Positions 4,568 through 64,000 are shown, numbered from the stretch's first letter. The stretch: DNA of 64,000 bases from Hyphomicrobiales bacterium (GCA_031423895.1 JANPGK010000004.1:10561-74560); one strand, 5' to 3'. Notes: a model not told the origin generated them from the letters alone. Translations and numbers: made by a program.

Positions 4568-4577
4568 TGCACTTAAG

Positions 4578-4760
4578 GCTCCCCACTTGTGGGGGAGCTG
4601 GCGAGCGTAGCGAGACTAAGGGGGGTAAGAAACGTTTTGCGAAGCAAATGAAACGATCCAGTGAATCGTTTCAAGTTTCGAACGCCCGTAGCGATGCGAA
4701 GGGCAGGGAAAGCAAAACAAGAAAACCCCTCCCCCTAACCCCCTCCCACAAGGGGAGAAG
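4578..4760. repeat. Composite family-B repeat (B1 hairpin module, spacer, B2 module), copy 1, intergenic between flbD and flhA
   Basis: The B1 module is GCTCCCCACTTGTGGGGGAGCTG..CTAAGGGGGGTAAG. The B2 module is AAAACCCCTCCCCCTAACCCCCTCCCACAAGGGGAG. The same modules recur at 38326, 47214 and 49339. The spacer holds further hairpins (GAAACGAT-N7-ATCGTTTC). Confidence 0.8.
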
Positions 4761-4778
4761 GAAAAAAGAAAGCACTAA

Positions 4779-10579: not shown

Positions 10580-10676
10580 CTGAAAAAATTAGCATACAAG
10601 GCAATCTCATTATTCATGATGGGATTGCCACCACGCCCGCGCTGCGCTATGGCTTGTCTCAAGAATAGGGCATCCC

Positions 10677-12699: not shown

Positions 12700-12735
12700 T
12701 GTTCCACGAATTAACGAGACAGCGCTCTTTATTTC

Positions 12736-12803
12736 GTCATCCTCGGGCTTGACCCGAGGATCTACTTAAAGTGGATGGTCGGATCAAGCCCGACTATGAC
12801 GGC
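12736..12803. repeat. Family-C repeat, copy 1 (intergenic between trpA and accD)
   Basis: Sequence GTCATCCTCGGGCTTGACCCGAGGATCTACTTAAA..GATGGTCGGATCAAGCCCGAC. A longer inverted copy is at 44698..44786. It shares the GTCATCCT terminus with family A. Confidence 0.7.
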
Positions 12804-16537: not shown

Positions 16538-17758
16538 ATGGAAATGGCGAAGACAATCTTGTTCCTGTGTAACGACCTTAGCTATTTCGCGGCACATCGC
16601 AACCATGTGAAGCGCTATGTGGGCACGCTTGGTTGGCATGTGAATATTGCGGCCGATGCAGGCGCAATGCCACCCAAATTATGGCCACAGAATTTCTATC
16701 CCATTTCTATCGTGCGGCGGTCGTTGTCGTCCCTCAAGGATGCGCGCGCCATGTTCAAAATTTGGCAGCTGCTGCGCGATTTAAAGCCTGATATTGTGCA
16801 TGCCATCACCATAAAGCCTGTGTTGATGGTCGGGTTTTTGATGCTGTTGCGAGTTATTTTATGCCGGCCTTCCATCCCCGCTGTCCTCACATTCCCTGGC
16901 TTGGGAGAGGTGTTTCGGCCTGTCCATTGCGAGCCTTCATTCATGGTAATGCTCAAACGCCGCGTGAGAAAATCATTGGTGAAAATGGCTTATCGGATGT
17001 TGGCACGGCTACCCAACTGCATCATGACCTTTGAAAATAAGGAGGATTGCGCCTATGCCATCCGCGAATTTGGCGTGCCGGCGCATCGTGCTGTGGCCAT
17101 TCATGGGGCCGGGGTAGATGTTGAAGAATTTCATGCAGAGCGATCTTTCGCTCCAGCGCTTCCACTGCGCATTGTGTTTGCAGCGCGCTTGTTGCGTTCA
17201 AAAGGGATTTTTGATTTTCTTGATGCGGTGAAGCTGGCGCGCGGGCAGGGAGCGCAATTTACTGCGCAGGTTGCGGGCATTCCCGACCATGGTAACCCCG
17301 ACAGTATCAGCCAATTGGAAATTGAAGCCATTAGTCGCACTGGTATGCTAGAATATTTGGGGTTTATCGACGACATGGCGCAATTATTGCGTGAAACCGA
17401 TATTGTGGTGCTGCCCACTTCATACCGCGAGGGGCTGCCCCGTGTGTTGATTGAGGCCGCAGCGGCTGGGTGCGCATTGTTGGCGTATAATACATCGGGC
17501 ATTGCCGATATTGTGAAACATGGCAGCAATGGCTATGTGGTGCAAACGGGCAATATTGCCGAGCTTGCCAAGCGCATGGTGCAATTGGTTGAGGCGCCCG
17601 CGCGCGTTCATAAAATGCAAAAAGCATCGCTCAAACTCATCCAAAATGGGCATTTTTCTGAACGTGCTGTGCAGAAACAATTTTTGAATGTGTATGAAAC
17701 GGCGTTTACGTTGAATCAGGCTGCCAGCCCCAAATCCAGTCCATTCGGCGGCGAATAA
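16538..17758 (+). CDS. Glycosyltransferase, GT4 (GT-B fold) family
   Basis: C-terminal EX7E-type region (PTSYREGLPRVLIEAAAAGCALLAYNTSGIADIVKHGSNGYVV). Confidence 0.8.
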   Translation: MEMAKTILFLCNDLSYFAAHRNHVKRYVGTLGWHVNIAADAGAMPPKLWPQNFYPISIVRRSLSSLKDARAMFKIWQLLRDLKPDIVHAITIKPVLMVGFLMLLRVILCRPSIPAVLTFPGLGEVFRPVHCEPSFMVMLKRRVRKSLVKMAYRMLARLPNCIMTFENKEDCAYAIREFGVPAHRAVAIHGAGVDVEEFHAERSFAPALPLRIVFAARLLRSKGIFDFLDAVKLARGQGAQFTAQVAGIPDHGNPDSISQLEIEAISRTGMLEYLGFIDDMAQLLRETDIVVLPTSYREGLPRVLIEAAAAGCALLAYNTSGIADIVKHGSNGYVVQTGNIAELAKRMVQLVEAPARVHKMQKASLKLIQNGHFSERAVQKQFLNVYETAFTLNQAASPKSSPFGGE

Positions 17759-18836
17759 TACCAGAACCTGAATATTTAATGATCAGATTGCGGATATGCG
17801 CAATCACCCCAGTTTGGTGATACACAACGCCATTATGGGCGGAGAGATCTTGCACGGCTTCTGTGCGCGGTTTTCGTGCCTGCTCAAACGCTTTAAAGGC
17901 GTCGATGAATGCATCCACTGAATTGGCGTTTTTGCATAATGACACCAAAGCGGCGGCATCTTCCAGTGCCATGCCCGCGCCTTGTGCAGCAAATGGCACC
18001 ATGGCATGGGCGGCGTCGCCCATAATCACAATTGGGCCTTCGCACCACGTTTTAAGCGGGGGCACGGTGGTGAGTGGCCAATAGGTCCATTTGGTGTTAT
18101 GCGCGAGAAACGCATTCAATTGTGCATGCGTAGCTGAGTGCGTGGGGGCATGCGCAGGCAGTGCAGGGGCGTGTTCAACCCATACAATATTGCGCATATT
18201 GTGCGCAATGAGCGGGTAGCTCACTACATGAGACTCTGGTGTTAAGTGTACATCCACCGTGTGATGCTGTGCGGGCAATAATGGCGCAAGACCACGCCAG
18301 GCAACTAGGCCCGTAGGTTGTGCCTCAACGCCAAATACAGTGCGTCGCATGGCAGAATTCACACCATCGGCACCAATAGCGGCGATGGCATGAATGGCTT
18401 CACCATTTTCAAACTGTGCCTCTACGCCAAATTCATTATGGGCAATTTTGGTCAGTTTATGCCCAAGTTTAAGCTCGATTAAGTCGTATTTTAATGCTTT
18501 TTCCAGCAAGGCAATTTGTAAATCTGCACGATGCAGCGCCCAAAATGGGGCATTATAATGGGCAGCCAGCGTGCGAATGTCTAAATATTGCAGCAGGCCG
18601 TGCCCATTGAACATCTGCACATAATCAATGCGGCTGGCGCGTGGCGCAACGATGTGTTCTAACCCCAAAGCCCGCAATGCATGCACCGCATTTGGGGAGA
18701 GCTGCAAGCCTGCGCCCACTTCAGAAAGCGCCTGAGCCTGCTCAGCAATTGTCACCTTATAACCCGCCTTTGCCAAGCCTATGGCTGTGGCCAAACCGCC
18801 GATACCCGCGCCAATAATTAAAATTCCATGTGGCAT
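17706..18836 (-). CDS. FAD-dependent aromatic-ring monooxygenase (salicylate hydroxylase/UbiH-like)
   Basis: N-terminal Rossmann motif ILIIGAGIGGLATAIGLAKAG and a late GDAAH motif (IMGDAAHAMVPFAAQGAGMALEDA). The 3' end overlaps the convergent GT gene by 53 nt. Confidence 0.8.
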   Translation of the reverse strand: MPHGILIIGAGIGGLATAIGLAKAGYKVTIAEQAQALSEVGAGLQLSPNAVHALRALGLEHIVAPRASRIDYVQMFNGHGLLQYLDIRTLAAHYNAPFWALHRADLQIALLEKALKYDLIELKLGHKLTKIAHNEFGVEAQFENGEAIHAIAAIGADGVNSAMRRTVFGVEAQPTGLVAWRGLAPLLPAQHHTVDVHLTPESHVVSYPLIAHNMRNIVWVEHAPALPAHAPTHSATHAQLNAFLAHNTKWTYWPLTTVPPLKTWCEGPIVIMGDAAHAMVPFAAQGAGMALEDAAALVSLCKNANSVDAFIDAFKAFEQARKPRTEAVQDLSAHNGVVYHQTGVIAHIRNLIIKYSGSGIIRRRMDWIWGWQPDST

Positions 18837-18857
18837 TGTGTGTCCTCAAGATGATTT

Positions 18858-18938
18858 AAGAGTTGAAATGCTCACGCTCCAACTCTTATTACGCTTCGCG
18901 GTTCGCTATTGCTCCTGCCAATTCATCAGATGAATTGG
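18858..18938. repeat. Family-D structured repeat, copy D1 (intergenic)
   Basis: Hairpin 1 is AAGAGTTG-N14-CAACTCTT. The core is ACGCTTCGCGGTTCGCTATTGCTCC. Hairpin 2 is CCAATTCAT-CAG-ATGAATTGG. Related units are at 42792, 57170 and 63969. Confidence 0.7.
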
Positions 18939-19016
18939 GCGCATTATCAATCAATATAATCGCTTGAAAACGCCTGCGCATTGATCCATATCATGCACAT
19001 ATGGAAATGAAGTGCA

Positions 19017-20042
19017 ATGAACTGGTATAAACGGTTATTTAGCGGCAGTAAAACTGAAGATGCCCCGATAGAGGCCGCTCAGCCACACGAACGTGCGCCG
19101 CTTTCATTTTTAGCGCGTATTGCCCGTGGCCTCACACGCTCATCCGGCCAAATCACTAATAAACTCACTAAGGTGTTCACCCATAAAAAGCTTGATGATG
19201 ATACGCTGCAGGAATTGGAAGACATTCTGATTGAGGCCGATTTGGGCGTGAATATGGCCGCGCAATTGGTGGCCGCACTCAAGGCAGATCGGTTCACCAA
19301 GGAAACCTCGGTTGAGCAGGTGAAAGTATTTTTGGCGGAACACATCACGCAGCAATTGGCGCCCTTTGCCCAGCCGATGAGGATTGCCGATGAACAGGCT
19401 GTACGGCATAAACCCCATGTGATTGTGATGGTGGGGGTGAATGGTACCGGCAAAACCACCACCACCGGCAAGTTGGCCTATATATTTGGCAAAGCGGGGC
19501 TGAAAACCGTGCTGGCAGCGGGGGATACCTTTCGCGCGGCGGCTGTGGCGCAGCTAGAGCGTTGGGGCGAGCGCGCCTTGGTAGAGGTTGTGGCGCTGGA
19601 GGAAGGCAAGGGCGATGCCGCCAGCGTGGCGTTTGCCGCGCATGAACAAGCCGTGGCGCAAGGTGCGGATGTATTGATTGTGGACACAGCAGGGCGCCTG
19701 CAGAATAAAGCCGATTTGATGGAAGAGCTGGCCAAGCTGGTGCGCGTGCTGAAAAAGCGCGATGCCAGCGCCCCGCATGAAGTGATTTTGGTGCTGGATG
19801 CCACAACTGGCCAAAATGCCATGGCACAGGCCGAAGTGTTTGCCAAAATTGTGGGGGTCACAGGGCTGATCATTACGAAATTAGACGGCACAGCGCGCGG
19901 TGGCATTGTGGTGCCCGTGGCCACCACACATAAGCTGCCCGTGCATTTTATTGGTGTGGGCGAAAGCATTGAAGACCTGCTGCCGTTTGAGGCACAAGCC
20001 TATGCGCGGAGCTTGGTAGGGCTAGGTGATATTCAGGGCTAA
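19017..20042 (+). CDS. ftsY: Signal recognition particle receptor FtsY
   Basis: SRP GTPase motifs GVNGTGKTTT, DTAGR and TKLDGTARGG. Confidence 0.9.
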   Translation: MNWYKRLFSGSKTEDAPIEAAQPHERAPLSFLARIARGLTRSSGQITNKLTKVFTHKKLDDDTLQELEDILIEADLGVNMAAQLVAALKADRFTKETSVEQVKVFLAEHITQQLAPFAQPMRIADEQAVRHKPHVIVMVGVNGTGKTTTTGKLAYIFGKAGLKTVLAAGDTFRAAAVAQLERWGERALVEVVALEEGKGDAASVAFAAHEQAVAQGADVLIVDTAGRLQNKADLMEELAKLVRVLKKRDASAPHEVILVLDATTGQNAMAQAEVFAKIVGVTGLIITKLDGTARGGIVVPVATTHKLPVHFIGVGESIEDLLPFEAQAYARSLVGLGDIQG

Positions 20043-37833: not shown

Positions 37834-40800
37834 TCACGTAATTGTGTTGAGGGGGATGGATTCGATGTGCCCTGAATGAGTCCATACAATTCGCGCTTCA
37901 ATGGGGTGTGGCGTGGGCAGTGTGTGCAGCAATAATTGCGCATATAGCGCCAATTGTGCGGCATATTGGGGGGCTATCCCGCCCGTATAGGCTTCAGTTT
38001 TAAAGTCGATGATCACATGGGCTGTGGGCGTGATGGCCAGCAGATCAATACGGCCAGAAATCAATTGTTGAGTGCCATTAACGAGCAATTCTCCTAAAAT
38101 AGGTAGCTCGGCATATCGTTGCGGCGCATTCCACACATCGGCCAATGCGGGCAGGGCAGCGGTACGGCGCACTTCAGTGATGATACCCTGCGGCGCGCCT
38201 GCATGTGCGTGTGGGTCAGTTTTGGTGATATAGGCCACCAATTGCGCATCATCGGGCAGGTTGGGCACCAATTCGAGCAATTTGTGGATGATGGTACCAC
38301 GCAAGGCTGGGTTTTTGATAGACAGGCTCCCCACTTGTGGGGGAGCTGCTGAGTGTAACGAAGCTGAGGGGGGTATTCTTTCTTCATATTTAGATACGTT
38401 ACCCCCCTCAGTCACGCCCAACAAAAAATTGGGCGCGCCAGCTCCCCCACAAGTGGGGAGCATAAGTAAAGTAGCCGCTTCACGTACGCTTATGCTCGAT
38501 GGCAAAATAATGCTGTGCAAGGCCGCGGGGGGGGGCAGTTGCGCATCACACTCAGCGGCAGATATGGGCAATTGCGCGGTGGGCACAGTGAGGGGCGCAG
38601 TTGTGGTGCGCAAGCGTTTGAAGCTGCCGTGAGGCGTTTCGATCACCTCATGCGTGCCACCCCATGCCTGCACTGCGGCGTCTATTGCGGTGTACCAAGC
38701 GGTAGGCATTGCGATGTCGATGGTGTTTTTTTCCAGTGCATTGGCTTGCTTCTGCCCTGCAGCACCAAAAATAAACACTCTGTCGCGCGCGCGGGTGAGT
38801 GCCACATAGAGCAGCCGCATGGTTTCAGCATATTCTGCGGTGTTGTGCGCGTCTTTTGCCGTGGTGAAGGCGGGCGGCGCAGCGTGTTTATGCACGGTTA
38901 AAATTGGGGTGTTGCACTGCGTAAACAAAATTTTAGGCGCTTTTTGCTGGCGATAATCAAAGCAGCTGTCGGCCAATATCACCACGGGCGCTTCCAGCCC
39001 TTTGGCATTGTGCACGGTCAGAATGCGCACGGCGGTGCTGGCTTCGCTCATTTCGCGCTTTAAAATATGCGATGTAGTGCGGATCCACTGGGTGAAGCTG
39101 AACAGATCGGGCACATTTTGTTCCTCAAATTTTAGGATCAAGCCTAAAAATTCATCGAGAATTTCATGCACATCGGTGCCCATGCGTGTAGCAAACGCCA
39201 CACGCCCATTGGTGTTGCTGAGCATATGCATGAAAAATTCATAGGGTCGCGTGGTGAGCGCCAAGGCTTGCAAATGGTGCAATTGTGCTAATGCAGCGCC
39301 CCAATGTGGCTGCTCATGTGCGCGCGCCTCAAGCGCTTGCAACAACGTGCCGCTGCGCTGCGGCGCAATCGCAAGGATGTCGTCTTCATTGAGGCCCAAT
39401 ATTGGCGATTTCAGCGCGCAAGCCAGTTGCAAATCATCCTGCGGCAGCAGCACACAATCGGCCAACGCCAGCAGATCCTGCACGGCAATATTGTCGGTGA
39501 GGGTCAGCCGATCTGCACCGCCAACCGGGATGCCAGCATCGCGCAGTGCTTTCAGCAGCGTCTCAAATATGCCCTTACGCGCGCGCACCAATATTAAAAT
39601 ATCGCCTGCGGTGATGCGACGCGGGGCCCCGTTTTTGCCCTCCACCACATGAGGCGCGGTGAGTAGGTCTTGGATGGTATAAATAATTTGCTGCACCATT
39701 TTATGAATGGCATTGCGGGGCTGCTGCGGCGCCGTGGCGGCCTCCCATGTGAGTGTAATTTCGTGCTTGGTGTCGGGCAGGCACAGCGGCCACACATCCA
39801 CACAGCCAAAACTGCTGCGGCGCTGGGTTTCATGGATCACGGGTGTGGCATCGGTGGTGAGCTGCTGCGCACGCGGGCGCGGGGCAAACACACCATCCAC
39901 AAGCGCCAACACATCGGGAGTGGTGCGGAATGAAATTTGCAGCGGCTCTTCATGCCATTCCAGCTGCGCATCGGTAATTTTATGAGCAAATGTGGCCTTC
40001 ATATGGGCAAATCGCTCTGGCGCTGCGCCTTGAAAACGGTAAATTGATTGTTTCTCATCCCCCACCACAAACACAGTGCGGGTTTTAGCGCGGCCCGCAT
40101 CGCCCACAAAAAACTCACTCGAAAGTTGCCAGATGATGTCCCATTGCGCATGGCTGGTGTCTTGGGCTTCGTCCACAAGAATGTGATCGATCCCCCCATC
40201 GAGTTTGTAATGCACAAAGGCGGCATCGGCACGCAGCAATAAATTGCGGGTTTTGAGCACCAAATCGTCGAAATCGAGCATGCGTTGCGCGGTTTTGGCG
40301 GCTTGATAGTGTTTCATCACCTCAATGGCAACCGTAATGGCACTGAGGCTGGCCTCAAAGGCGCGGAAATTATACACATGGGTGCGCAGTTCCAACAATT
40401 GGGCGATGCAGGTCTCATAAAACAGGGCATGTTCAGGGAATTGTGTCACAATGTCCTTGGTGGGGGATCGTTTTTTCAGCAGCTCGCCTGATTGCGTTTC
40501 CACCAATTTCATCAAACCCGCAAACCGCGTGTTGAACGACGATGCGGCCAGGCTTTCCCGCAGATATGTGGCAATTTTGGTGTCGTGATCCTTGCCCGTT
40601 TCAAAAATTTGGCATAGCCAGTGCACCATTTTTGGATTTGTCAGCGGAATATCGCGCAGCTGTTTTGCCAGCGTTTCAAGGGTTTGCGTGGGCGGCACAT
40701 CTAGCGTGGCCCGTAGCGCCAATTCAAGCGATTGCGTGGTGTGGTTTAACATGAAGCTGAGTAGCGCATCGCGTTTAGAAAGCAGCCCTTGCAGGTGCAT

Positions 40801-41376
40801 TTCTAGCTGCGCACTGCCCAAAATACTGTGCAAACGCTTTAAATCTGCATGAAATGGCGAGCCAATTTGGCCCGCGCTGCGATAGAATTTTTGGAAAGCG
40901 CCCGCCCATAATGTTTGTATTTGGGGTTCATCTAGCAGTGTGAAACTTGTGGGCACAGGGGCTTCAAACGGAAATTGCTGCAGCACACGCTCGCAAAATG
41001 CATGAAGCGTTTGAATTTTCAAACCGCCAGGCGTTTCTAGCGCTGTGGCAAATAATCTGCGGGCATGGCGCAATTGGCGCGAGCTGGCAGGCGCATTGGT
41101 TAGGGTTTCAATGGCAATTTTCAACGCGGCATCATCTAAATTGACCCAAATTTTGAGGGTATCAAACACGCGTGCGGCCATTTCAGCTGCAGCGGCGCGG
41201 GTGAAGGTGAGGCACAGAATTTTTTCAGGAGGTGTGCCTGCCAATAGTAAGCGGATCACCCGCTGCGTGAGCACGTGCGTTTTGCCCGAGCCTGCATTGG
41301 CGGCCACCCACGCGCTGGCGTTTGTATGCGTGATCCGCGCGATTTTTTGGGCGTGGCTGCTCAAGGGGTTATTCAT
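37834..41376 (-). CDS. addA: Double-strand break repair helicase-nuclease AddA
   Basis: UvrD-type helicase motifs (AANAGSGKTHVLTQR, VDEAQDTS, ..) and a C-terminal PD-(D/E)XK nuclease region. I placed the start at ATG 41376, overlapping the addB stop by 8 nt. The longer ORF-track start at 41532 would run 160 nt into addB. Confidence 0.9.
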   Translation of the reverse strand: MNNPLSSHAQKIARITHTNASAWVAANAGSGKTHVLTQRVIRLLLAGTPPEKILCLTFTRAAAAEMAARVFDTLKIWVNLDDAALKIAIETLTNAPASSRQLRHARRLFATALETPGGLKIQTLHAFCERVLQQFPFEAPVPTSFTLLDEPQIQTLWAGAFQKFYRSAGQIGSPFHADLKRLHSILGSAQLEMHLQGLLSKRDALLSFMLNHTTQSLELALRATLDVPPTQTLETLAKQLRDIPLTNPKMVHWLCQIFETGKDHDTKIATYLRESLAASSFNTRFAGLMKLVETQSGELLKKRSPTKDIVTQFPEHALFYETCIAQLLELRTHVYNFRAFEASLSAITVAIEVMKHYQAAKTAQRMLDFDDLVLKTRNLLLRADAAFVHYKLDGGIDHILVDEAQDTSHAQWDIIWQLSSEFFVGDAGRAKTRTVFVVGDEKQSIYRFQGAAPERFAHMKATFAHKITDAQLEWHEEPLQISFRTTPDVLALVDGVFAPRPRAQQLTTDATPVIHETQRRSSFGCVDVWPLCLPDTKHEITLTWEAATAPQQPRNAIHKMVQQIIYTIQDLLTAPHVVEGKNGAPRRITAGDILILVRARKGIFETLLKALRDAGIPVGGADRLTLTDNIAVQDLLALADCVLLPQDDLQLACALKSPILGLNEDDILAIAPQRSGTLLQALEARAHEQPHWGAALAQLHHLQALALTTRPYEFFMHMLSNTNGRVAFATRMGTDVHEILDEFLGLILKFEEQNVPDLFSFTQWIRTTSHILKREMSEASTAVRILTVHNAKGLEAPVVILADSCFDYRQQKAPKILFTQCNTPILTVHKHAAPPAFTTAKDAHNTAEYAETMRLLYVALTRARDRVFIFGAAGQKQANALEKNTIDIAMPTAWYTAIDAAVQAWGGTHEVIETPHGSFKRLRTTTAPLTVPTAQLPISAAECDAQLPPPAALHSIILPSSISVREAATLLMLPTCGGAGAPNFLLGVTEGGNVSKYEERIPPSASLHSAAPPQVGSLSIKNPALRGTIIHKLLELVPNLPDDAQLVAYITKTDPHAHAGAPQGIITEVRRTAALPALADVWNAPQRYAELPILGELLVNGTQQLISGRIDLLAITPTAHVIIDFKTEAYTGGIAPQYAAQLALYAQLLLHTLPTPHPIEARIVWTHSGHIESIPLNTIT
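38326..38461. repeat. Inverted pair of family-B1 modules, located inside the addA coding sequence
   Basis: GCTCCCCACTTGTGGGGGAGCTG..CTGAGGGGGGTATTC, a 19-nt spacer, then the reverse-complement module GTTACCCCCCTCAG..GCTCCCCCACAAGTGGGGAGC. The AddA frame stays open across it. Confidence 0.8.
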
Positions 41377-44300
41377 CTTCGCCGCCTTCATCTTCCTCGG
41401 CCAGCACACCCCATTCGGCAATGCGCGCCAAATGGTCGTAATCGGTGTAGCTCGCGATTTTCCCGCCATATGGTTTGACATAAAACGGGTGGGTTGGGGT
41501 GCACATGGCCTGCAGCGCCACATGCACGCCATCGAGAATATTGGTGCGCATTTGCGCTAAGGCCTCGCCTTTGCCCATGGGCTGCGATGCTTTTAGTTGC
41601 GTGAAATTATCGGTGAATTTGATGTATTCCAGTGCATGTATGGAAGTGAGTGTGCCGTTTTTCTCAAAATTTTGGGCATGTGCCATTTCCCCCAGTAGCA
41701 CCAATTGTGGATAAAGCCCCGCATTCACTAGTTTTGTGGCGGGCACAACCCCTGTTTTAAAATCGCTTATCACAATGCCATCGCTGCGCTGTTCCACGCG
41801 GTCGGCCCGGCCATGAATGGTGAATTTCTCCCCCATAATATCCCACTGCATGCGATACGACACTTCGCAGCGTACTTTATGCGTATGCTGGCGGCGAGCC
41901 TGTTCAAACGCAATGATGCCATCGACCACGCCATGTAATTGCAGCCGCCATAAAATCCGTTCTTTATCTGGCAAAACGCTGGTGTGGGTTTCAATCTCAG
42001 TCAATACGCTGTTGTGCAGCGCCTGTGTGTCGTCGCTCCACTGTGTGGCCGCCAGCTCAACAATTGTGTGGATGAGGGCCCCGCGAATGCGCGCATCGGG
42101 CAATTGGCCAATGGGTTCAAGAGGCTTCAAGCCCAACACATATTCGGCATAAATGGCATAAGGGTTGTGTAGCAGGGTTTCAATTTTGGTGACAGAAAGC
42201 GTTTTAGGCCGCAATGCCACAGCAGGGCAAGGGGTTGGTGCGGCAATGGGCGCAAAATTATGCGTGGCGTTGTGCGCGCGCACCTGTGCCAGCACTGCAT
42301 TGCCACGGCTGCGCCACGGTTCAAAGCTATGTGTGCCCATCACCGCCGAAATGCGCTGCAAAAACCGCGATGGCAGTGTTGGTGCGCCGCCCTCGCGTAC
42401 CGATCGCGTGAGAATAATGTGGTTTTGCCCCATAAATTGTGCAAAATCATGCGCTGAAAGCGCAATGCGCCGCTCTGGCATGGGCAAACCAATGGCACTG
42501 CGGAGTGCTCGCCCCAGCCACACATCGGGCATATTGGCTGGCGGCCACATACCTTCATTGAGCCCACCCAAAATCACCGTGTCGAATGTGTGCAAACGCG
42601 CTTCCAACGCGCCCATCACCACAATGCGGCTGTTGTGCAGGGGGGGCGGTAATGTGGGCGCCATGTTCAAAATTTGGGTGAGAATGGCGGGGTATGCCGC
42701 GAATGGGATTAAAAATTGCGTGGCTTGGCCAGTATGCGCATCGTGAATGGCTTGCAACACTGTGGTGTGAGCGGTGTCGGCATCATAGTTTAAAACTTGG
42801 CATGCTGTCGCGCCAAGTTGAAGACACGCTTCGCGGTTCGCTATCGCTCCTTCCAAATTTTGAGAAAATTTGGGGATATCTTCATCCTGTACAACGGGCA
42901 CGAGCGCGGCAAAAATTTGGGCAAATTGCTCATTGTAGGTGGCAAAAGGTTGGTGCGGATTATCGGCAGTTTGCAAGGCCAAAAATGGTGCAATTGCCGC
43001 CAAATAGCCTTCTAAAACCGCCTGCGCGTTGTGCCAATCCTCTAAGGTGAGTGATTTTTGCGCGTGGGTCAGCTGATGCGGCTTTGCACCTTCGCAGTGA
43101 GCATTTTGCCATGTTTCAAAATTATGAGCAAGCGCCGCATTCCAATCGCCAGCAGGGGCAATGCCGCGAAATAGCGCGCATTCCAGCGCGGTAACAGCTG
43201 TTTTTAGATCCAAAACGCCTTCAACCTGCACCATAGGGTGACGCAAAAATGCCAGTGCGGCTGCGGGAGATTGTGGCGCGGCTAGCGCATCAAGCAACAG
43301 GCGGGCGGCACGCCCTGGCATGGTGTGCAACAATGGCAACCCGCCAGAATCGGGCACATCAACTCCAAATGCCTGCAAATGCGCACACACGCGCCGCGCT
43401 AGGGTGCGGTTTGGCGTGATCAGTGCCGCAGTTTCATGAGGTGTGGCGGCTGTTAGGCGTAATTGCAGCGCAATGCTCAGCGCTTCCTCTTCCTCATGTG
43501 CAGCCTCTAAAAGCGTGACATGCGCGGTGGCGTTCATCAATTCTGCATCGCATTGCTGCACGCGCCATGAATGCCATTCATCGGTGGTGCTGGCGGGCTG
43601 CAAGGCATAAGACACAATGGTTTCGAGCAGCGGTGGCGGGGTTATACGCCCTAAAATCGGCACATCGGCAGGGTGGGCAATATGCAGAGTAGTGAGCAGC
43701 CGCTTGAGGTGAATTTGCGGGTGAGTTTCGGCCTGCCCAGCAGCGCCAATGGCCGCCCAAGCGGTTACGCTCAGCTGCGTGTCAAGCCCCGGAATGATGA
43801 GCGTGCCATATGGGCTGCGGGCAATCGCGGCCAATAGCTCCGCAGTGGCAGGCGTTGAGCCAGTGGAGCCCGCCGCGATGACGCGGCCAAATTGTCCCGC
43901 CTCAATGCGCTGCGCCATGGCATGGATGGCTTCATCCCAGGCCACAATTGGGTCTTGCAGGCTATGGTCCTGCAAAAATTGCGGCCATTGCTGTAGTACT
44001 ATGTTCAAAAAACCGAGGTTGAGCTCGTGGCTGCCCAAAAATTCGGTGGGAATCATGTCTGCAATTGCGTGCGCACTCACATGCTCAAGCGTAAGCTGGT
44101 CAAGCGTATTGGCCAAATCTTGCGCCAGCGCAACACATTCAGCATGGGAAATCTGTATAAAAATTGGGTCGTTTGGGTTGTGCCATTTTGGTGTGTGGCC
44201 TGCATTCACCGCCGCATATACCGCCTGTTTCCATTGCAAAATTAAGCGTGCCAGCACCCATACGCGCTGGGTGGGTGTAACCGTCGTTTCTGATATATCT

Positions 44301-44668
44301 TCATGTTCCAGCCCAATTTCACCCACATCCCGCACGGGAATGATGCGTGGCAAAATTAGGGCTTGCGTACCAGCTTGCCGCAATAATTCCAGCTCAAAAT
44401 TTTTGCATGCACGCCGAGTGGGGAAAAATATGGTGGTATTGGCGAGTGCGAATGGGCTTATGTCATCCTGAGGCTGCGCCGAAGGATCTCCCAGAATGTG
44501 AGCACAATCGGAAGGAGATCCTTCACTCCCGTCTTCGCTACGCTTCGCCGAGGCAAGTCGTTCAGGATGACAGCTGCTGTTGGTTTGCCCACCCAACACA
44601 AACTGTGCCAATGTTTCAAAAAACGGCCGCGACGCGGGGATGGTGTAGATGTTGGGTGCGTGAGGCAT
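41369..44668 (-). CDS. addB: Double-strand break repair protein AddB (alphaproteobacterial type)
   Basis: About 1100-aa ORF upstream of and overlapping addA. The N-terminus is MPHAPNIYTIPASRPFFETLAQ...FFPTRRA and there is a C-terminal PD-(D/E)XK-like region. Start ATG 44668 (ORF-track start 44719 lies inside repeat C2). Confidence 0.9.
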   Translation of the reverse strand: MPHAPNIYTIPASRPFFETLAQFVLGGQTNSSCHPERLASAKRSEDGSEGSPSDCAHILGDPSAQPQDDISPFALANTTIFFPTRRACKNFELELLRQAGTQALILPRIIPVRDVGEIGLEHEDISETTVTPTQRVWVLARLILQWKQAVYAAVNAGHTPKWHNPNDPIFIQISHAECVALAQDLANTLDQLTLEHVSAHAIADMIPTEFLGSHELNLGFLNIVLQQWPQFLQDHSLQDPIVAWDEAIHAMAQRIEAGQFGRVIAAGSTGSTPATAELLAAIARSPYGTLIIPGLDTQLSVTAWAAIGAAGQAETHPQIHLKRLLTTLHIAHPADVPILGRITPPPLLETIVSYALQPASTTDEWHSWRVQQCDAELMNATAHVTLLEAAHEEEEALSIALQLRLTAATPHETAALITPNRTLARRVCAHLQAFGVDVPDSGGLPLLHTMPGRAARLLLDALAAPQSPAAALAFLRHPMVQVEGVLDLKTAVTALECALFRGIAPAGDWNAALAHNFETWQNAHCEGAKPHQLTHAQKSLTLEDWHNAQAVLEGYLAAIAPFLALQTADNPHQPFATYNEQFAQIFAALVPVVQDEDIPKFSQNLEGAIANREACLQLGATACQVLNYDADTAHTTVLQAIHDAHTGQATQFLIPFAAYPAILTQILNMAPTLPPPLHNSRIVVMGALEARLHTFDTVILGGLNEGMWPPANMPDVWLGRALRSAIGLPMPERRIALSAHDFAQFMGQNHIILTRSVREGGAPTLPSRFLQRISAVMGTHSFEPWRSRGNAVLAQVRAHNATHNFAPIAAPTPCPAVALRPKTLSVTKIETLLHNPYAIYAEYVLGLKPLEPIGQLPDARIRGALIHTIVELAATQWSDDTQALHNSVLTEIETHTSVLPDKERILWRLQLHGVVDGIIAFEQARRQHTHKVRCEVSYRMQWDIMGEKFTIHGRADRVEQRSDGIVISDFKTGVVPATKLVNAGLYPQLVLLGEMAHAQNFEKNGTLTSIHALEYIKFTDNFTQLKASQPMGKGEALAQMRTNILDGVHVALQAMCTPTHPFYVKPYGGKIASYTDYDHLARIAEWGVLAEEDEGGEDE
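42792..42873. repeat. Family-D structured repeat, copy D2, inside the addB coding sequence
   Basis: Hairpin 1 is AAAACTTGG-N12-CCAAGTT. The core is ACGCTTCGCGGTTCGCTATCGCTCC. Hairpin 2 is CCAAATTTT-GAG-AAAATTTGG. Confidence 0.7.
44462..44571. repeat. Family-A palindromic repeat, copy 3, inside the addB coding sequence (N-terminal region)
   Basis: GTCATCCTGAGGCTGCGCCGAAGGATCTC...GGAGATCCTTCAC...TTCAGGATGAC, with perfect 10-bp terminal inverted repeats. Confidence 0.75.
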
Positions 44669-44697
44669 GTGGTTTTCACGTCCATAATACGTCATGG

Positions 44698-44786
44698 TCG
44701 GGCTAGTAGACCCGACCATCTTCTTTTAAAGTAGATCCTCGGCCATCCGCTTTCGCCCGAAAGCGGGCTACAGCGAGACAAGCGCC
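44698..44786. repeat. Family-C repeat, copy 2 (inverted relative to copy 1), immediately upstream of addB
   Basis: The reverse complement reads GTCATCCTCAGG...GAGGATCTACTTTAAA..GATGGTCGGGTCTACTAGCCCGAC, matching 12736..12803 apart from a larger internal hairpin segment. Confidence 0.7.
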
Positions 44787-46521: not shown

Positions 46522-47298
46522 TCATGTAATTTTGTCAAATCTCAAATAACAACTCCTTCGCCCCTCGCGCCGTGCTTTGGCTTCATAGCGGGTTTGCACC
46601 CAGCCCTCATAAGGTGTGAGGAAATCAGCGGCGGTGTGCGCTGGCCATGTGAACGCGGGGTGTTCGCGGATGTGCTGCAAGGTCCACGCCGCATAGCTAT
46701 CAATATCGGTGGCACAGCGAAATTGGCCGCCCAGCACCAAAATACGGGCGAATTCATTCAGCGCATCGATGGAGACAAAGCGCCGCTTCCAATGGCGTTT
46801 TTTGTGCCATGGGTCGGGGTAAAACAGGTGCACATGCGAGAATTGCGCATCTGGCAGGGTACGCAGCAAAAAATGTGCATCGTCATTATAAAAGCGGATG
46901 TTGGGCAGGTGTTCATCCAAGCAATCGCGCACAGCGGCGGCATATCCATTCAAAAACGGCTCCACGCCGATGAAGCCCACAGTGGGGTTATTGCGGGCGC
47001 GGTTAAGCAAGTGCTCGCCCGAACCAAAGCCAATTTCCAGCTCATAGCGTTCGAATGGTTGGCCAAATAGCTGTGATAGATCGAGCATTTGCCCATGCGT
47101 AAACGTAATATCTACAGCGCCTTGCTGGGCGATGGCGTCTTTTTTGCCAAGCGATAGCGCCTTGCCTTTGCAGCGGCCATAAAACTTGCGGATGGTTTCG
47201 GGTGGGGGTGAAGATTCTCCCCTCCCCTTGCGGGAGGGGGTAGGGGGAGGGGTTTTCTCATCAGCATTCGCTGAGTATATGTTTGGAATATTATCCAT
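46522..47298 (-). CDS. trmB: tRNA (guanine-N7)-methyltransferase TrmB with a repeat-encoded N-terminal extension
   Basis: Core motifs: EIGFGSGEHL, FYPDPWHKKRHWKRRF. The first ~38 aa (..EKTPPPTPSRKGRGESSPPP..) are encoded by the family-B2 repeat module. Confidence 0.85.
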   Translation of the reverse strand: MDNIPNIYSANADEKTPPPTPSRKGRGESSPPPETIRKFYGRCKGKALSLGKKDAIAQQGAVDITFTHGQMLDLSQLFGQPFERYELEIGFGSGEHLLNRARNNPTVGFIGVEPFLNGYAAAVRDCLDEHLPNIRFYNDDAHFLLRTLPDAQFSHVHLFYPDPWHKKRHWKRRFVSIDALNEFARILVLGGQFRCATDIDSYAAWTLQHIREHPAFTWPAHTAADFLTPYEGWVQTRYEAKARREGRRSCYLRFDKIT

Positions 47299-47354
47299 TA
47301 AGAATACCCCCCTCAGTCACGCTATGCGTGACAGCTCCCCCGCAGGTGGGGAGC
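47214..47354. repeat. Composite family-B repeat (B2, spacer, B1 in reverse orientation), copy 3, straddling the trmB start codon
   Basis: B2 spans 47214..47257 (TCTCCCCTCCCCTTGCGGGAGGGGGTAGGGGGAGGGGTTTT). B1 spans 47300..47354 (AAGAATACCCCCCTCAG..GCTCCCCCGCAGGTGGGGAGC). The trmB ATG (47298) lies in the spacer between them. Confidence 0.8.
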
Positions 47355-47361
47355 CGTTTTC

Positions 47362-51592: not shown

Positions 51593-52450
51593 ATGGCAAA
51601 AAAGAAAAAGCATGACGACCATGGCGGTGGCCACGGGTGGTTTGTGACCTTCGCCGATTTGATGGCATTGCTGATGAGCTTTTTCGTGATGCTTGCGGCC
51701 AGTTCTAGCCAAGATAAAAAGAAAATGCAGGTGGTTGCGGGCTCGATGCGTGAGGCTTTTGGTGTCGATAAGGAATCGCGCCGCGACGGCATGGTGGAAA
51801 TTCCCGGCATTCCCGTGAAGGATTATTTGAAGCAGGTGGGGGCAATCGCCTCGAAAGAACAATCAGGCTTTGCGCAAGAGCGGCACGACCAGAAGGAAAA
51901 GCAAGGCCCTGAAGCCAACACCCATGATATTGCGGCCACAACGGTGGAAAAGCCGCGCCAATTTGCGTTGGCGGCGGCAAGCTTGCGGCAATCATGGCAG
52001 GAAATGCCCGAAATTGCCGAAGCGTCTGATAATATCATGATTGAAGAAACTGTGGATGGCCTCGCCATTCAGCTGGTGGACCAAGAAGGCCGCGCTATGT
52101 TCCCCGAGGGTTCAAAATTCCCATATGAGCGCACACGGTTCTTGATCAGTCGCTTGGGCCCTGTGTTGCGCAAAATGCCGAATAAAGTGCAAATTTCGGG
52201 CCACACCACCGCCAACCGCCTCACAGGCCGTGCGGGCTATTCCAATTGGGAACTTTCAGCGGATCGCGCCAATGCCATCCGCCAAATTCTTACAGAATCT
52301 GGCCTGCCTTATGAGCGGATTCATTCGGTGATGGGCAAAGCGGATACCGACCCATTATTCCCGAACGACGCCTATTTGGCCGCCAATGCCCGCGTGACCA
52401 TTTTGCTGATGCCCGACGCCCCGCCATTGCCCACGGAATTGAAGAAGTGA
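51593..52450 (+). CDS. motB: Flagellar stator protein MotB (OmpA-like C-terminus)
   Basis: N-terminal plug/TM with the essential Asp (WFVTFADLMALLMSFFVML) and a C-terminal OmpA-type PG-binding domain (..NWELSADRANAIRQIL..). Confidence 0.85.
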   Translation: MAKKKKHDDHGGGHGWFVTFADLMALLMSFFVMLAASSSQDKKKMQVVAGSMREAFGVDKESRRDGMVEIPGIPVKDYLKQVGAIASKEQSGFAQERHDQKEKQGPEANTHDIAATTVEKPRQFALAAASLRQSWQEMPEIAEASDNIMIEETVDGLAIQLVDQEGRAMFPEGSKFPYERTRFLISRLGPVLRKMPNKVQISGHTTANRLTGRAGYSNWELSADRANAIRQILTESGLPYERIHSVMGKADTDPLFPNDAYLAANARVTILLMPDAPPLPTELKK

Positions 52451-56640: not shown

Positions 56641-57474
56641 TCACACCCGATAATACGCCTGCCATGCCGTTTCAGCTTCTGTAATCGATTCTGGCATGCC
56701 CACATGCATCCACAGCCCCTCAAGCCGCACGCCGTGCAGGCGCTCTTGCGCAATCAGCGTGTTGAAAATGCGGTTGAGCGAAAATGCTGACCCCACGTCA
56801 TATTCATGAAACAGACTGGCCTTTAATATCGCCACGCCTGTATACACAAACGGCGCCACATCCACGCCCGCACGGCGGGTAATTGTGCCATCTTGCGCCA
56901 GATGAAAGTCGCCGCGCCCTTCATAGCCTGTGGTGTGGGGCGTTGCGGCCAATAGCAGTACCGCATCCATGCGGGCGGGGTCGAAATAGTGCCGCAAGCG
57001 CTGTAGGCCGCTACTGGCGCCATCAATCCACACTGTGTCGGAATTGCATAGATAAAACACATCGCGGTTGATGAGTGGCAGGGCCTTGGCTATGCCGCCG
57101 CCTGAATCGAGAATGTGGGTACGCTCGTCGGAGATAACAATTTCTATCTGGGGGATTTCCTCCCCCTTAGCGCCGCTATTATGTGCGGCGCCCCCCTCCA
57201 CGCTGCGCGCTGCGCTAGCGCTTGTGCCAAAATCACTGAGTGATTTTGGGTCTTGCTGACCTTGTAGCAAATGCGCTTCAAGCATGTCGGCCAAATAATG
57301 CACATTCACCACGGCGCGGTGCACACCTGCAGCGGCCAGCCTGTCGAGTGTGTGGTCAATCATCGCTCTGCCCATGACAGGCACCATGGGTTTGGGCATA
57401 TGCAAGGTGATGGGGCGCATGCGGGTGCCAAGCCCTGCGGCCAAAATCATTGCGGTGTCGATTTCAGCCACCAT
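56641..57474 (-). CDS. murU: Sugar-phosphate nucleotidyltransferase, MurU-like (N-acetylmuramate alpha-1-phosphate uridylyltransferase family)
   Basis: N-terminus AMILAAGLGTRMRPITLHMPKPMVPV. It sits beside the TsaE/AmgK-like fusion, as in other alphaproteobacteria. It carries a ~30-35 aa low-complexity insert encoded by repeat D3. Confidence 0.75.
   Translation of the reverse strand: MVAEIDTAMILAAGLGTRMRPITLHMPKPMVPVMGRAMIDHTLDRLAAAGVHRAVVNVHYLADMLEAHLLQGQQDPKSLSDFGTSASAARSVEGGAAHNSGAKGEEIPQIEIVISDERTHILDSGGGIAKALPLINRDVFYLCNSDTVWIDGASSGLQRLRHYFDPARMDAVLLLAATPHTTGYEGRGDFHLAQDGTITRRAGVDVAPFVYTGVAILKASLFHEYDVGSAFSLNRIFNTLIAQERLHGVRLEGLWMHVGMPESITEAETAWQAYYRV
57170..57249. repeat. Family-D structured repeat, copy D3 (diverged), inside the murU-like coding sequence
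   Basis: Hairpin 1 is GCGCCGC-N8-GCGGCGC. The core ACGCTGCGCGCTGCGCTAGCGCTTG matches the D2 core at 19 of 25 positions with no gaps. Hairpin 2 is CCAAAATCACT-G-AGTGATTTTGG. Confidence 0.6.
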
Positions 57475-61723: not shown

Positions 61724-63034
61724 TTATACCACCTTGCGCATTTCGTGAAGGAAATGGTTCACCTCGTTCTTGAGTGTGGTGGATTCTTCAGATAAATTGC
61801 CTGCAGAGTGCAGTAAATCTGTTGCCGCACAAAGGGTTTGCCCCGCAGCATGAGACACATCATGAATATGTGTTGTGACTTCTTGCGCGCCAATAGACGC
61901 TTGCGTAACGCTATTGGCGATTTCTGAAATGGCATGCATTTGCTCTTGCATCGCATGTGCAATTGAGGCTGTGGTGCTATTGACATCCCTCACGATATTC
62001 TCAACTTCCACAAAATGATCTGCCGCTTGGTGTGTTGCGTTTTGGATCCCGCTAATTTGTGCAGCAATATCGCTGGTGGCGCGGCCTGTTTGTGCGGCGA
62101 GCGCCTTTACTTCTTGCGCAACAACAGCAAATCCTTTGCCTGCCTCGCCAGCGCGCGCCGCTTCAATCGTGGCATTGAGGGCCAATAAGTTGGTTTGGTC
62201 AGAAATATCGGCGATGAGCTTCACTACAGTCCCGATTTTTGTAGCGGCTTCGCTCAGTCCGCGCACAGAGTCTTGCGTTTCGATGATACGAGATACAGCA
62301 TTTTGAGTAATAGAGCTTGTGTGTTGCATTTGCTTCTCAATGCAGGTGACAGAGGCAGATAATTGTTCTGCTGCTGCGGCAACAGTTTGCACATTTGCAG
62401 ATGCCTCTTCAGCGGCGGCGGCTACTATTGTCGCTTTTTGGCTGGTGTCGTTTGCGGTGCTGTCCATTTGTCCAGCGGTGCTTGAAAGCGCGTCGGAAGC
62501 GGCCCCTAATGATGAAACGATATTATGCACTTGGGTTTCAAAATGGTTTGTCACACGACGAAATTCCGCAACCTTATTGCCCATCATGTTGATTGCGCAA
62601 TTCATGGCTTTGGCCCCATGAAGCAATGCGCCAACCATCCCCACCTCAATAATTGGGCGCGTGTAACGATTATGTGAAATGGCGGTCATGGCGGCAGTGG
62701 TTTCCCGCACATACGAGTCCGAGCGGTCGATGAGCTCATTGATAGCGCGCATTAAATTGCCAAAATTACCACGTTCATCAATTCCAATGACACGGGCTTC
62801 ATAATCACCCTGCGCAACAGCTAGGACAATATTTTGCAGGCGCTCTATTTTCTTATCGCTCACATTGATATACCAAAAGCTGGCCGCGCTTAATAGCACA
62901 CCAAGAATAAGGAATACAGACATGGATAATGTGCTCAGCACGCCCATTTCATGACCGATTAAATTGGCGAATATTGTCACTATGCTCAGTGTGACACTCA
63001 AGTGCGCCTTAGAGAGAGAGGATAAATTCATCAT
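61724..63034 (-). CDS. Methyl-accepting chemotaxis protein: TM hairpin, HAMP and signalling domain (Aer/CetA-like output module)
   Basis: Two closely spaced TM helices with no periplasmic domain, a HAMP-like linker, and the conserved MCP hairpin tip (..[35 protein letters not shown]..). I preferred the ATG-ATG at 63034/63031 over the TTG at 63064. Confidence 0.8.
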
Positions 63035-63590
63035 AATTTGTGCCTTTAAGGGTGAGAATTTCAACGAGTTTTTCTAATGCAGCATTCATGCCGGCATCTT
63101 TGTTTGTGTGAGTCTTTTCAATAGCCAGCAAATCGGCATAAAGCGGTGCGATAATCTGATCGATCACATTGCGCGCGGGCTTGCGGCGGTTTGAATGATA
63201 GCCGCACAGCGTGCCGTCTTTGTTATAGCTGGGGGTAACATGCGCCAACACCCAATAATAATCGCCATTGCTTGACATATTTTTGACATAAGCAAAAATT
63301 TCTTTCTCAGCACTCAGCCAATCCCACAGCAGTTTGAACACACAACGCGGCATATCGGGGTGGCGGATCACGCTATGTGGCGCACCAATCATTTCATACT
63401 CTGTAAAGCCCGCAAGTCGTAAAAATACATCATTCACATAGGTCATTCGGCCTTTGAGGTCGGTTTTCGAAACGATAAGCTCATCAAAACCAAAGGTTCG
63501 CTCCGTATTTGTTGGTGCAATACGACCCGCCAGTTTGCGCATTTTGGGCGGCGTTTTTGTTGGATTTAGAAAGGCAAGTTGAGCACCCAT
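63009..63590 (-). CDS. Stand-alone Aer-type PAS-domain protein (CetB-like input module)
   Basis: [50 protein letters not shown]...[13 protein letters not shown] closely resembles the FAD-binding PAS domain of Aer. Start ATG 63590 has GAGGA upstream. The 3' end overlaps the MCP start by 26 nt. Confidence 0.8.
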
Positions 63591-63854
63591 AACATCCTCA
63601 CAGGTCAATATTTATACGCAACGCATATAATTCACAGCCATGAGCATATGTATATTATGTATAGTGATCTTGATATGAATCAAGTATATTTGAAATATAT
63701 GTGTATTAATCACATATAAATTGAATACTCTGCTTAAATAATGAATTTTTGTTAGTTTTTAATGTAATAATGTTGCTTTTTATTAAATAATAACTAATTT
63801 CTCCCCTTTGTTTCTGAGAGTTAGGGGATTTTTGCTCAATTCAAAATTCAATTC

Positions 63855-63883: not shown

Positions 63884-63968
63884 CGCGTATCCTCCATACA
63901 GAATTCTGCTTGGTGGGCCGCCTTGAGAAGGGGTGGCGCATATCGCAGGGTCATATACTTTTGGGATT

Positions 63969-64000
63969 AAAAACTTGGAATCGCTGCGCGCCAAGTTTTA
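63969..64000. repeat. Family-D repeat, copy D4 (hairpin 1 only; truncated by the window end)
   Basis: AAAAACTTGG-AATCGCTGCGCG-CCAAGTTTT is nearly identical to hairpin 1 of D2 (AAAACTTGG-CATGCTGTCGCG-CCAAGTT). Confidence 0.5.

Follow-up and report, generated by a model that had tools for sequence, protein, structure and literature searches.

The stretch of DNA analysed here (the window, taken at its full length of 64,000 nucleotides) comes from a Hyphomicrobiales bacterium (GCA_031423895.1, JANPGK010000004.1:10561-74560) and carries dispersed copies of a palindromic repeat, referred to below as Family D. The host (about 52% GC) has flagellar, chemotaxis, tryptophan (trpA/B), and arginine (argG) biosynthesis genes, and the approximately 45 open reading frames (ORFs) of the window have flagellar, chemotaxis, cell-wall, repair, and biosynthetic functions. 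Three full copies were found, each running from hairpin 1 through a 23-nt core to hairpin 2, with a unit length of 85-100 nt. A fourth copy is cut by the window end, a fifth is degenerate, and a sixth, on a different contig, is known from a protein alone (P0241); copy counts in this text cover the window and this one protein. The copies, their parts, and the two genes that they interrupt are as follows.

10600..10654, + strand: copy 5, degenerate (covariance model 9.8 bits, E=0.8, a weak match)
18855..18941, + strand: copy 1, full, intergenic (covariance model 108.8 bits)
18857..18888, + strand: copy 1 hairpin 1, TAAGAGTTG / CAACTCTTA, loop of 14 nt (folding, perfect-hairpin search)
18891..18913, + strand: copy 1 core, ACGCTTCGCGGTTCGCTATTGCT, which includes the mini-hairpin GCG-GTT-CGC (core pattern, folding)
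18918..18938, + strand: copy 1 hairpin 2, CCAATTCAT CAG ATGAATTGG (folding, perfect-hairpin search, covariation)
41369..44719, - strand: addB, 1116 codons, interrupted by copy 2 (TIGR02786, E=1e-208)
42789..42876, + strand: copy 2, full, within addB and antisense to the gene (covariance model 107.3 bits)
42794..42819, + strand: copy 2 hairpin 1, AACTTGGC / GCCAAGTT, loop of 10 nt (folding, perfect-hairpin search, covariation)
42826..42848, + strand: copy 2 core, ACGCTTCGCGGTTCGCTATCGCT (core pattern)
42853..42873, + strand: copy 2 hairpin 2, CCAAATTTT GAG AAAATTTGG (folding, perfect-hairpin search, covariation)
56641..57474, - strand: murU-like nucleotidyltransferase gene, 277 aa, interrupted by copy 3
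57150..57249, + strand: copy 3, a variant with three hairpins, about 99-102 nt long, within the murU-like ORF and antisense to the gene (covariance model 27.1 bits, E=1.7e-5)
57150..57166, + strand: copy 3 extra hairpin H0, GGGGGA TTTCC TCCCCC (folding; also in the orthologous copy of a relative, locus L037)
57170..57191, + strand: copy 3 hairpin 1, GCGCCGC / GCGGCGC, loop of 8 nt (folding)
57200..57222, + strand: copy 3 core, ACGCTGCGCGCTGCGCTAGCGCT (core pattern)
57227..57249, + strand: copy 3 hairpin 2, CCAAAATCAC TGA GTGATTTTGG, a 10-bp stem with a 3-nt loop (folding, covariation)
63967..64000, + strand: copy 4, cut by the window end, with hairpin 1 AAAACTTGG / CCAAGTTTT (covariance model E=0.09)

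An earlier note on this DNA had grouped four loci by a common architecture, and all four proved to have it where they had been placed; the one correction concerns hairpin 2 of copy 3, which had been described as 11 bp and is a 10-bp stem. The core pattern ACGCTKCGCGSTKCGCTAKYGCT has three exact matches in the window, on the + strand only (at 18891, 42826, and 57200), and none in 100 dinucleotide-preserving shuffles with up to three mismatches tolerated (three observed versus zero expected). The covariance-model check that had been proposed was carried out on the window with a model trained on copies 1 and 2; it retrieved copy 3 (27 bits, E=1.7e-5) and, weakly, copies 4 (E=0.09) and 5 (E=0.8), with no other credible copy. 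A match at 52240-52305 (E=0.14) was rejected as chance, as it lies within the OmpA-like domain of MotB and adds no excess length. RNA folding of either strand of each copy recovered the predicted hairpins (z-scores of -2.0 to -5.0), and all Family D stems were included among the 28 perfect hairpins of at least 8 bp in the window (about 9 in shuffles). The mini-hairpin GCGNAGC was discarded as a repeat marker, with 23 and 50 occurrences observed versus about 33 per strand in shuffles and hence no enrichment.

The two incomplete copies share parts of this architecture. Copy 4 extends beyond the window: the identical Logan contig L001 reads ...CCAAGTTTTAAGTTACGC, the core begins 5 nt past hairpin 1, and the contig adds AGTTACGC, the core start, before it stops. 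This contig (SRR20217181; 100% identical to window 56389-64008, same strain) ends 8 nt beyond the window end, inside the copy 4 core, as would be expected if the stretch is repeated elsewhere in the genome. Copy 5 has a 13-bp hairpin, GGCAATCTCATTA / TGATGGGATTGCC, with two G-T pairs, followed by a core-like ACGCCCGCGCTGCGCTATGGCT that is one base shorter, and it is without hairpin 2.

The settings of the copies are unrelated. Copy 1 lies between divergent genes for a flavin adenine dinucleotide (FAD) monooxygenase (17706..18836, - strand) and ftsY (19017..20042, + strand), and it may fall in the 5' untranslated region (UTR) of the monooxygenase gene, provided that a promoter-like site at 18970-18943 is genuine. 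Copy 4 is upstream of a PAS-domain gene (63009..63608, - strand), and copy 5 is intergenic, upstream of trpB. Across these unrelated contexts within 64 kb, all five window copies are co-oriented on the + strand. GC skew was positive in 15 of the 16 4-kb blocks of the window that holds these five of five same-strand copies, which hints that copy polarity is fixed relative to replication, five of five being not significant (two-sided probability 0.06).

Of the three full copies, two (copies 2 and 3) are inserted in frame into genes, namely addB and murU. The earlier note had missed this feature, which ties the element to known intragenic palindromic repeats such as the Rickettsia palindromic elements (RPEs) and the repetitive extragenic palindromes (REPs) found in repair genes. 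Copy 2 encodes ...PKFSQNLEGAIANREACLQLGATACQVLN... in AddB, in frame and free of stop codons, and 24-29 residues derived from it are missing in all 11 aligned homologues. Copy 3, also in frame and stop-free, encodes K77...P108 of the MurU-like protein, whose 277 aa compare with about 240 aa in nearly all of 120 listed homologues. In the MurU alignment, the excess of about 34 residues is bounded by an invariant Pro on one side and the IxISDER strand on the other; the Pseudomonas MurU enzyme in the PDB aligns to residues 8-74 and 121-269, with 12 residues in the intervening segment versus 46 here. In an AlphaFold model that is poor overall (mean predicted local distance difference test [pLDDT] score of 60.6), the murU insert is coil with a pLDDT of 26-35, lying between helix 61-73 and strand 111-116, and the model weakly suggests a tolerated surface loop.

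The sixth copy interrupts P0241, a 522-aa MurE-like ligase, in which residues 11-43 (DIPNVSSALAGAIANREAQTKLGAPACQVLNTD) match the addB copy, read in the same frame, with 70% identity over 33 residues; MurE homologues align to P0241 only from about residue 45-58 on. There is no murE in the window, so the P0241 insert is a separate copy in a third housekeeping gene. Inserts in genes span about 25-34 codons, and half of the six known copies are intragenic (AddB, MurU, and MurE). The core is read in different frames, giving GAIANREA in addB and SASAARSV in murU, and intergenic copy 1, if read in the frame of the intragenic copies (the addB frame), contains stop codons. Thus, the conserved entity is the nucleic acid and not a peptide.

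Separately, AddB carries a second insertion near its N-terminus (44460-44570, - strand) of about 33 residues, CHPERLASAKRSEDGSEGSPSDCAHILGDPSAQPQ, which is likewise missing in 11 homologues. It is flanked by an 11-bp terminal inverted repeat, TGTCATCCTGA / TCAGGATGACA, and is unlike Family D. A 20-nt exact match, GCGCCATGTTCAAAATTTGG, is shared between 16746-16765 (in a glycosyltransferase gene, + strand) and 42658-42677 (in addB, - strand); the addB site is about 110 nt from copy 2, and the match is too long for chance in 64 kb.

Sequence comparison indicates that the murU insertion is old. The sole homologue with an insert is P0002, a MurU protein 63% identical to that of the window (Logan SRR33557406, locus L037), and its insert sits at the same codon position. 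The parts of the L037 insert follow the order of copy 3 (H0, H1, H2): GGGGGGA TTC TCCCCCC, then GCCGC ... GCGGC, then a core remnant CGCTTCGC, about 30 unrelated bases, TTGCTCGTG, and finally CGCATCAC TGC GTGATGCG. Gene DNA flanking the insert is 68.5% identical between L037 and the window. Within the insert, L037 matches copy 3 at 11 of 23 core positions, 13 of 17 in H0, and 14 of 23 in H2; H2 nevertheless keeps a perfect 8-bp stem, its outer three pairs having changed from AAA/TTT to CGC/GCG. The insertion therefore predates the split to 68% DNA identity, with the core decayed and the hairpins persisting.

Differences between the arms of different copies were largely compensatory. In hairpin 2, for which the three full window copies and the L037 orthologue were aligned on the loop, 7 of 9 pairs were altered on both sides and 97.2% of cells were paired, with none of 500 shuffles scoring as high; slid controls were only 28-47% paired. 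None of the 36 cells showed a one-sided (G-U type) change, all changes leading from one Watson-Crick pair to another and including A-T to T-A flips. The signal was weaker in hairpin 1 of copies 1, 2, and 4, where 3 of 11 pairs were altered on both sides, a number reached by 34 of 500 shuffles. Hairpin 1 of copies 3 and 5 has a wholly different sequence, and part of the variation is thus a difference of modules rather than substitution. Furthermore, the core was conserved more than the arms, as had been claimed: copies 1 and 2 differ at 1 of 23 core positions versus 24 of 65 in the remainder (Fisher p=0.0025), with 12 of 36 mismatches in the stems. Both strands of the copies fold equally well.

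The earlier note had taken such change to point to selection on structure. The compensatory changes stand; the step to selection is uncertain, as the Watson-Crick-only pattern also fits template switching. Template switching between arms is mutational: it generates perfect inverted repeats and keeps them so with no selection, and it yields compensatory changes in one step (PMC8794818, PMC5941160), and REP families likewise include sub-families with alternative complementary stem residues (PMC3733652). The covariation rests on four sequences, too few to decide between selection and template switching, and from these we lean to intramolecular template switching as the source of the stem covariation in preference to selection on folded DNA or RNA. 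We do so because the changes are exclusively Watson-Crick, with A-T/T-A flips that lack a wobble intermediate, because there are no G-U cells and both strands fold equally well, and because hairpins persist at an old site with a decayed core and stems evolve faster than the core.

On balance, the evidence tips toward Family D being a new, unnamed family of REP/RPE-like interspersed palindromic repeats that is lineage specific and non-autonomous. Palindromic repeats that also colonise genes are already known, and it is the family that is new, not the kind of system. The sequences show dispersed copies, in-frame inserts absent from homologues, the use of different frames, compensatory arms, and an old shared insertion; mobility, a single-stranded DNA (ssDNA) intermediate, an enzyme acting in trans, and an origin of the covariation in template switching are inferred. 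In the proposed model, the unit would consist of a 23-nt GC-rich core with independent hairpins around it, two or in some cases three, and copies would be scattered through the chromosome, most plausibly as ssDNA hairpins acted on by an enzyme whose gene lies elsewhere in the genome. Intergenic copies would persist freely, and genic copies would persist only if in frame, stop-free, and in a tolerant surface loop, which would account for the 25-34 extra residues seen in AddB, MurU, and MurE. After insertion, the core would be free to decay, whereas the hairpins would remain perfect Watson-Crick palindromes as their sequence drifts. Most likely, intramolecular template switching at replication would carry a change in one arm over to the other; alternatively, selection on a DNA or RNA hairpin would maintain the pairing.

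Several observations weigh against this model. No empty site was found that would fix the exact ends, reveal any target duplication, or demonstrate mobility itself, and no pair of copies is near-identical, the best pair differing at 25 of 88 columns with no sign of recent activity. In agreement with the earlier note, neither a transposase nor a REP-associated tyrosine transposase (RAYT) was found among the approximately 45 window ORFs, and RAYT-type tags were absent. Copy number is known only for 64 kb and one protein. In addition, the core is far better conserved than the stems in copies 1, 2, and P0241 (p=0.0025). Such conservation is not obvious for a purely decaying selfish element, and the core could have a function at each site. 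Its near-invariance, which could stem from a need for the core in propagation or from a local function, is the main fact that template switching leaves partly unexplained. Three perfect hairpins in an insertion that predates the split to 68% DNA identity could equally reflect purifying selection for function. One speculative extension, to which we give little weight, is a two-part element in which the core serves propagation and the hairpins are kept because a host process (replication, repair, or co-translational pausing) uses them; alternatively, this genome may offer a clean natural case of palindrome maintenance by template switching in coding sequence.

Of the alternatives to a REP/RPE-like repeat, the one that survives best, although unlikely, is a structured RNA module under selection, acting as an mRNA stabiliser or as a processing or translational pause site. 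Strong covariation in hairpin 2, folds stabler than those of shuffles, and the retention of hairpins in the orthologous murU insertion despite diverged surroundings would all be expected of such a module. The neighbouring or host gene is on the - strand for four of the five window copies, so that, should the intergenic copies lie in 5' UTRs (as the promoter-like site near copy 1 suggests), transcription would cover the same element strand, and the two G-T pairs of copy 5 pair on the + strand only. However, the transcript contexts are disparate: copies lie within two or three ORFs, where their frames differ, in the promoter region of divergent genes, and upstream of trpB in the opposite sense. 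Rfam gave no match anywhere in the window, and there is no terminator tail. The 36 hairpin 2 cells contain no G-U intermediates and both strands fold equally well, a pattern seen more typically in DNA palindromes. Conservation is highest in the core, where structure is least, and a valid covariation test would need more than three or four sequences.

A DNA motif used by the host, in the form of a cruciform or ssDNA hairpin array that is bound by a nucleoid, replication, or repair protein and has a fixed replication polarity, is quite unlikely. Bacterial interspersed mosaic elements (BIMEs) are bound by integration host factor (IHF) and gyrase. A comparable role for Family D would be consistent with the shared orientation of the five window copies under a GC skew that is positive across the window, with a core significantly better conserved than the arms in copies 1, 2, and P0241, and with stems that are perfectly Watson-Crick on both strands. 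The succession of hairpin, conserved central motif, and hairpin also resembles BIME-type mosaic elements (PMC3184786). Against this, five of five copies in one orientation carries a two-sided probability of only 0.06, and decay of the core in the orthologous murU copy (11 of 23 positions) runs contrary to a site-specific core function. By eye, the core has no IHF-like consensus, no binding protein is known, and a useful chromosomal motif would not be expected within enzyme-coding sequence.

Module swapping, in which a pool of unrelated palindromic units is joined to GC-rich connectors to form mosaics instead of one hairpin undergoing substitution, is more improbable still. It finds some footing in hairpin 1 of copies 3 (GCGCCGC) and 5 (GGCAATC), which is unlike that of copies 1, 2, and 4, and in the extra hairpin of copy 3. 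Another repeat family of the window has a CGCCCAA/TTGGGCG hairpin that resembles the foot of hairpin 2, as well as CCCCCCTC...ACGCT like copy 3, and these likenesses suggest modules common to both families. Nonetheless, the CCAA/TTGG foot of hairpin 2, the position of its 3-nt loop, and its distance to the core are constant in all full window copies, and copies 1, 2, and 4 have the loop of hairpin 1 (ATGCT..CGC) and its flanks in common. The shared foot, loop, and flanks indicate homologous hairpins with internal paired changes, and in the orthologous murU pair such paired changes are seen at a single locus. Finally, a protein-level repeat or chance deserves almost no weight: AddB and P0241 do have AGAIANREA...LGA.ACQVLN in common in the same frame, but a peptide motif is refuted by the different frame in murU, the stop codons in copy 1, and the intergenic position of two copies, and chance by the absence of the core pattern from all 100 shuffles.

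Wider searches returned few relatives of Family D. A scan for the core ACGCTNCGCGNTNCGCTANNGCT in one genome per species (185,579 species) gave 20 single matches in scattered phyla, none with flanking hairpins, against a rough chance expectation of about 17. The same core produced 15 matches in JGI metagenome contigs, all unrelated and lacking the hairpins, and none in viral contigs; in 72,556 plasmids, blastn with copies 2 and 3 as queries found nothing beyond short chance matches. A concatenated multi-frame peptide query returned only the MurU protein itself and P0241, and it was insensitive, as AddB itself was not returned; in a profile search of 1.84 billion representatives, the profile was swamped by the full MurE sequence. 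Identity to the best homologue is 35% for AddB and 63% for MurU. Copies in related genomes, for which the earlier note had recommended a search, are represented by the orthologous L037 insert, and the core scans of public genome, metagenome, and viral sets and the plasmid blastn added none. Family D looks confined to one poorly sampled alphaproteobacterial lineage.

Three core matches in Stellaceae-like metagenome-assembled genomes (MAGs) were considered and rejected: a hairpin does precede the core there, but it consists of a stop codon and a CAACGC-GAA-GCGTTG mini-hairpin beside an unrelated REP, with no Rfam match. These MAGs (L018 4379-4630; L003, L007) have a REP of their own, GCGGTTGC NNNN GCAACCGC, including a 63-bp tandem array, that is unrelated to Family D, and L007 has more units of it than the orthologous site in L003.

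Other repeats were also seen in the window. A textbook CGTC-tagged REP, CGTCATCCTCGGGCTTGACCCGAGGAT, with a 9-bp stem and a 5-nt loop lies at 12734-12762, and a 26-nt stretch identical to it ends the contig of the 70%-identical relative (L037 5617-5642), directly past the murU stop codon; the same REP family is therefore present in both species in different contexts. A further family, made up of a hairpin GCTCCCCCACAAGTGGGGAGC and TACCCCCCTCAGTC, occurs at 4576-4627, 38324-38375, 38390-38463, 47295-47356, and 49398-49460. Two inverted copies of it lie inside the addA ORF (37834..41532), and the stretch 38405-38430 forms the CGCCCAA/TTGGGCG hairpin that is like the hairpin 2 foot of Family D. 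Further palindromic repeats lie at 49338-49380 and 4640-4770, one being CCTCTCCCCTTGTGGGAGAGG followed by GCGCGAAGCGC and another a hairpin-rich intergenic block before flhA. The genome is evidently permissive for palindromic repeats, with several families in the window and some of them in addA and addB.

Few palindromic repeats are known that end up as part of proteins, and these observations add to them an unnamed family from an alphaproteobacterial lineage that has been poorly sampled. In AddB, MurU, and MurE, nature has in effect run loop-insertion experiments on essential enzymes. Given a whole genome, selection on structure could be told apart from hairpin-templated mutation by means of one contrast: the more similar copies have a conserved core and fast, paired stem changes, and in the old orthologue the core has decayed and the stems survive. 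Such inserts also matter for annotation, since they inflate protein length, break short-read assemblies, and can pass for novel domains.

Like Family D, integron attC sites combine a conserved folded single strand and highly variable stems with a short conserved element; however, attC boxes (RYYYAAC ... GTTRRRY) are absent from the ends of copies 1-3, the window has no integrase and no cassette array, and the copies of Family D occur within housekeeping genes or in ordinary intergenic DNA. [quoted passage not shown] No consistent direct repeat flanks the window copies as a target-site duplication, and there is no empty site to fix the ends; a TA/TTAA duplication was entertained and rejected, as the left-end TT(T)AA shared by copies 1, 2, and 4 has no matching repeat at the right end. 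No sites like intrinsic terminators were found at copies 1 and 4, and the intergenic copies lack a terminator tail; hairpin 2 is followed by GGGCG, GGGGA, or GGGTC, and copies are inside ORFs or between divergent genes. In bcr1 of the Bacillus cereus group, compensatory changes likewise keep a multi-hairpin structure in dispersed repeats of about 100-150 bp (PMC3184786). That element differs in its 5-bp terminal direct repeats, its known transcription, and its phylum, and it has no sequence relation to Family D.

BIMEs and the Rhizobium-specific intergenic mosaic elements (RIMEs) combine palindromic units with conserved linker motifs and are strictly extragenic; the architecture of Family D fits, and yet three of its six copies are intragenic. 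Like REP/BIME repeats, among them the REPs with a CGTC tag that are frequent in alphaproteobacteria (Di Nocera et al. 2013, PMC3733652), Family D consists of dispersed short perfect stem-loops with alternative complementary stem residues, joins hairpins and conserved linker motifs in a mosaic, and has intragenic copies, which in REP/BIME are occasional and preferentially in recombination and repair genes. REP and REPIN elements are built from a single palindromic unit of 20-40 bp, often as inverted dimers, in contrast to the 85-100 nt and two or three different hairpins of Family D. In Family D, moreover, the linker is conserved and the stems are variable, stems do not start with AT, and half of the known copies are intragenic. 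By the REP tag definition of PMC3733652, no GTAG/CGTC tag (TGTC/CCTC) directly adjoins either hairpin: hairpin 2 is preceded by the tetranucleotides CCTG, CCTT, and TGTG on the + strand and, on the - strand, by GCGC, ATCC, and GACC, hairpin 1 is preceded by GATT, TTAA, and TTAA, and the closest match is one TGTC, 3 nt from copy 2 hairpin 1 on the - strand. The earlier note had recognised no named repeat family here, and the lack of both these tags and any Rfam match bears this out.

Family D also has parallels with the RPEs. Intragenic palindromic repeats are well known, with RPEs in Rickettsia and REPs in uvrA/B/D, recBCD, and dnaE of many species, notably alphaproteobacteria (PMC3733652), and repeats fused in frame to ORFs have been documented (PMC3184786). 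Family D differs from RPEs in having a non-palindromic conserved core between separate short hairpins in place of one long palindrome and in the six copies known, and its host, with flagella, biosynthesis genes, and 52% GC, is not a Rickettsia; the comparison with RPEs is by their published description. Both are palindromic repeats of about 100 bp from an alphaproteobacterium that are found intergenically and in frame (Ogata et al. 2000, via PMC3184786 and PMC3733652). In both, stop-free copies add a few dozen residues to conserved proteins, including DNA-repair proteins, and neither has an associated transposase, as judged for Family D from the ORFs of the window. The in-frame insertion at positions absent from homologues that characterises RPEs is present in murU, in addB, and in the MurE-like P0241.

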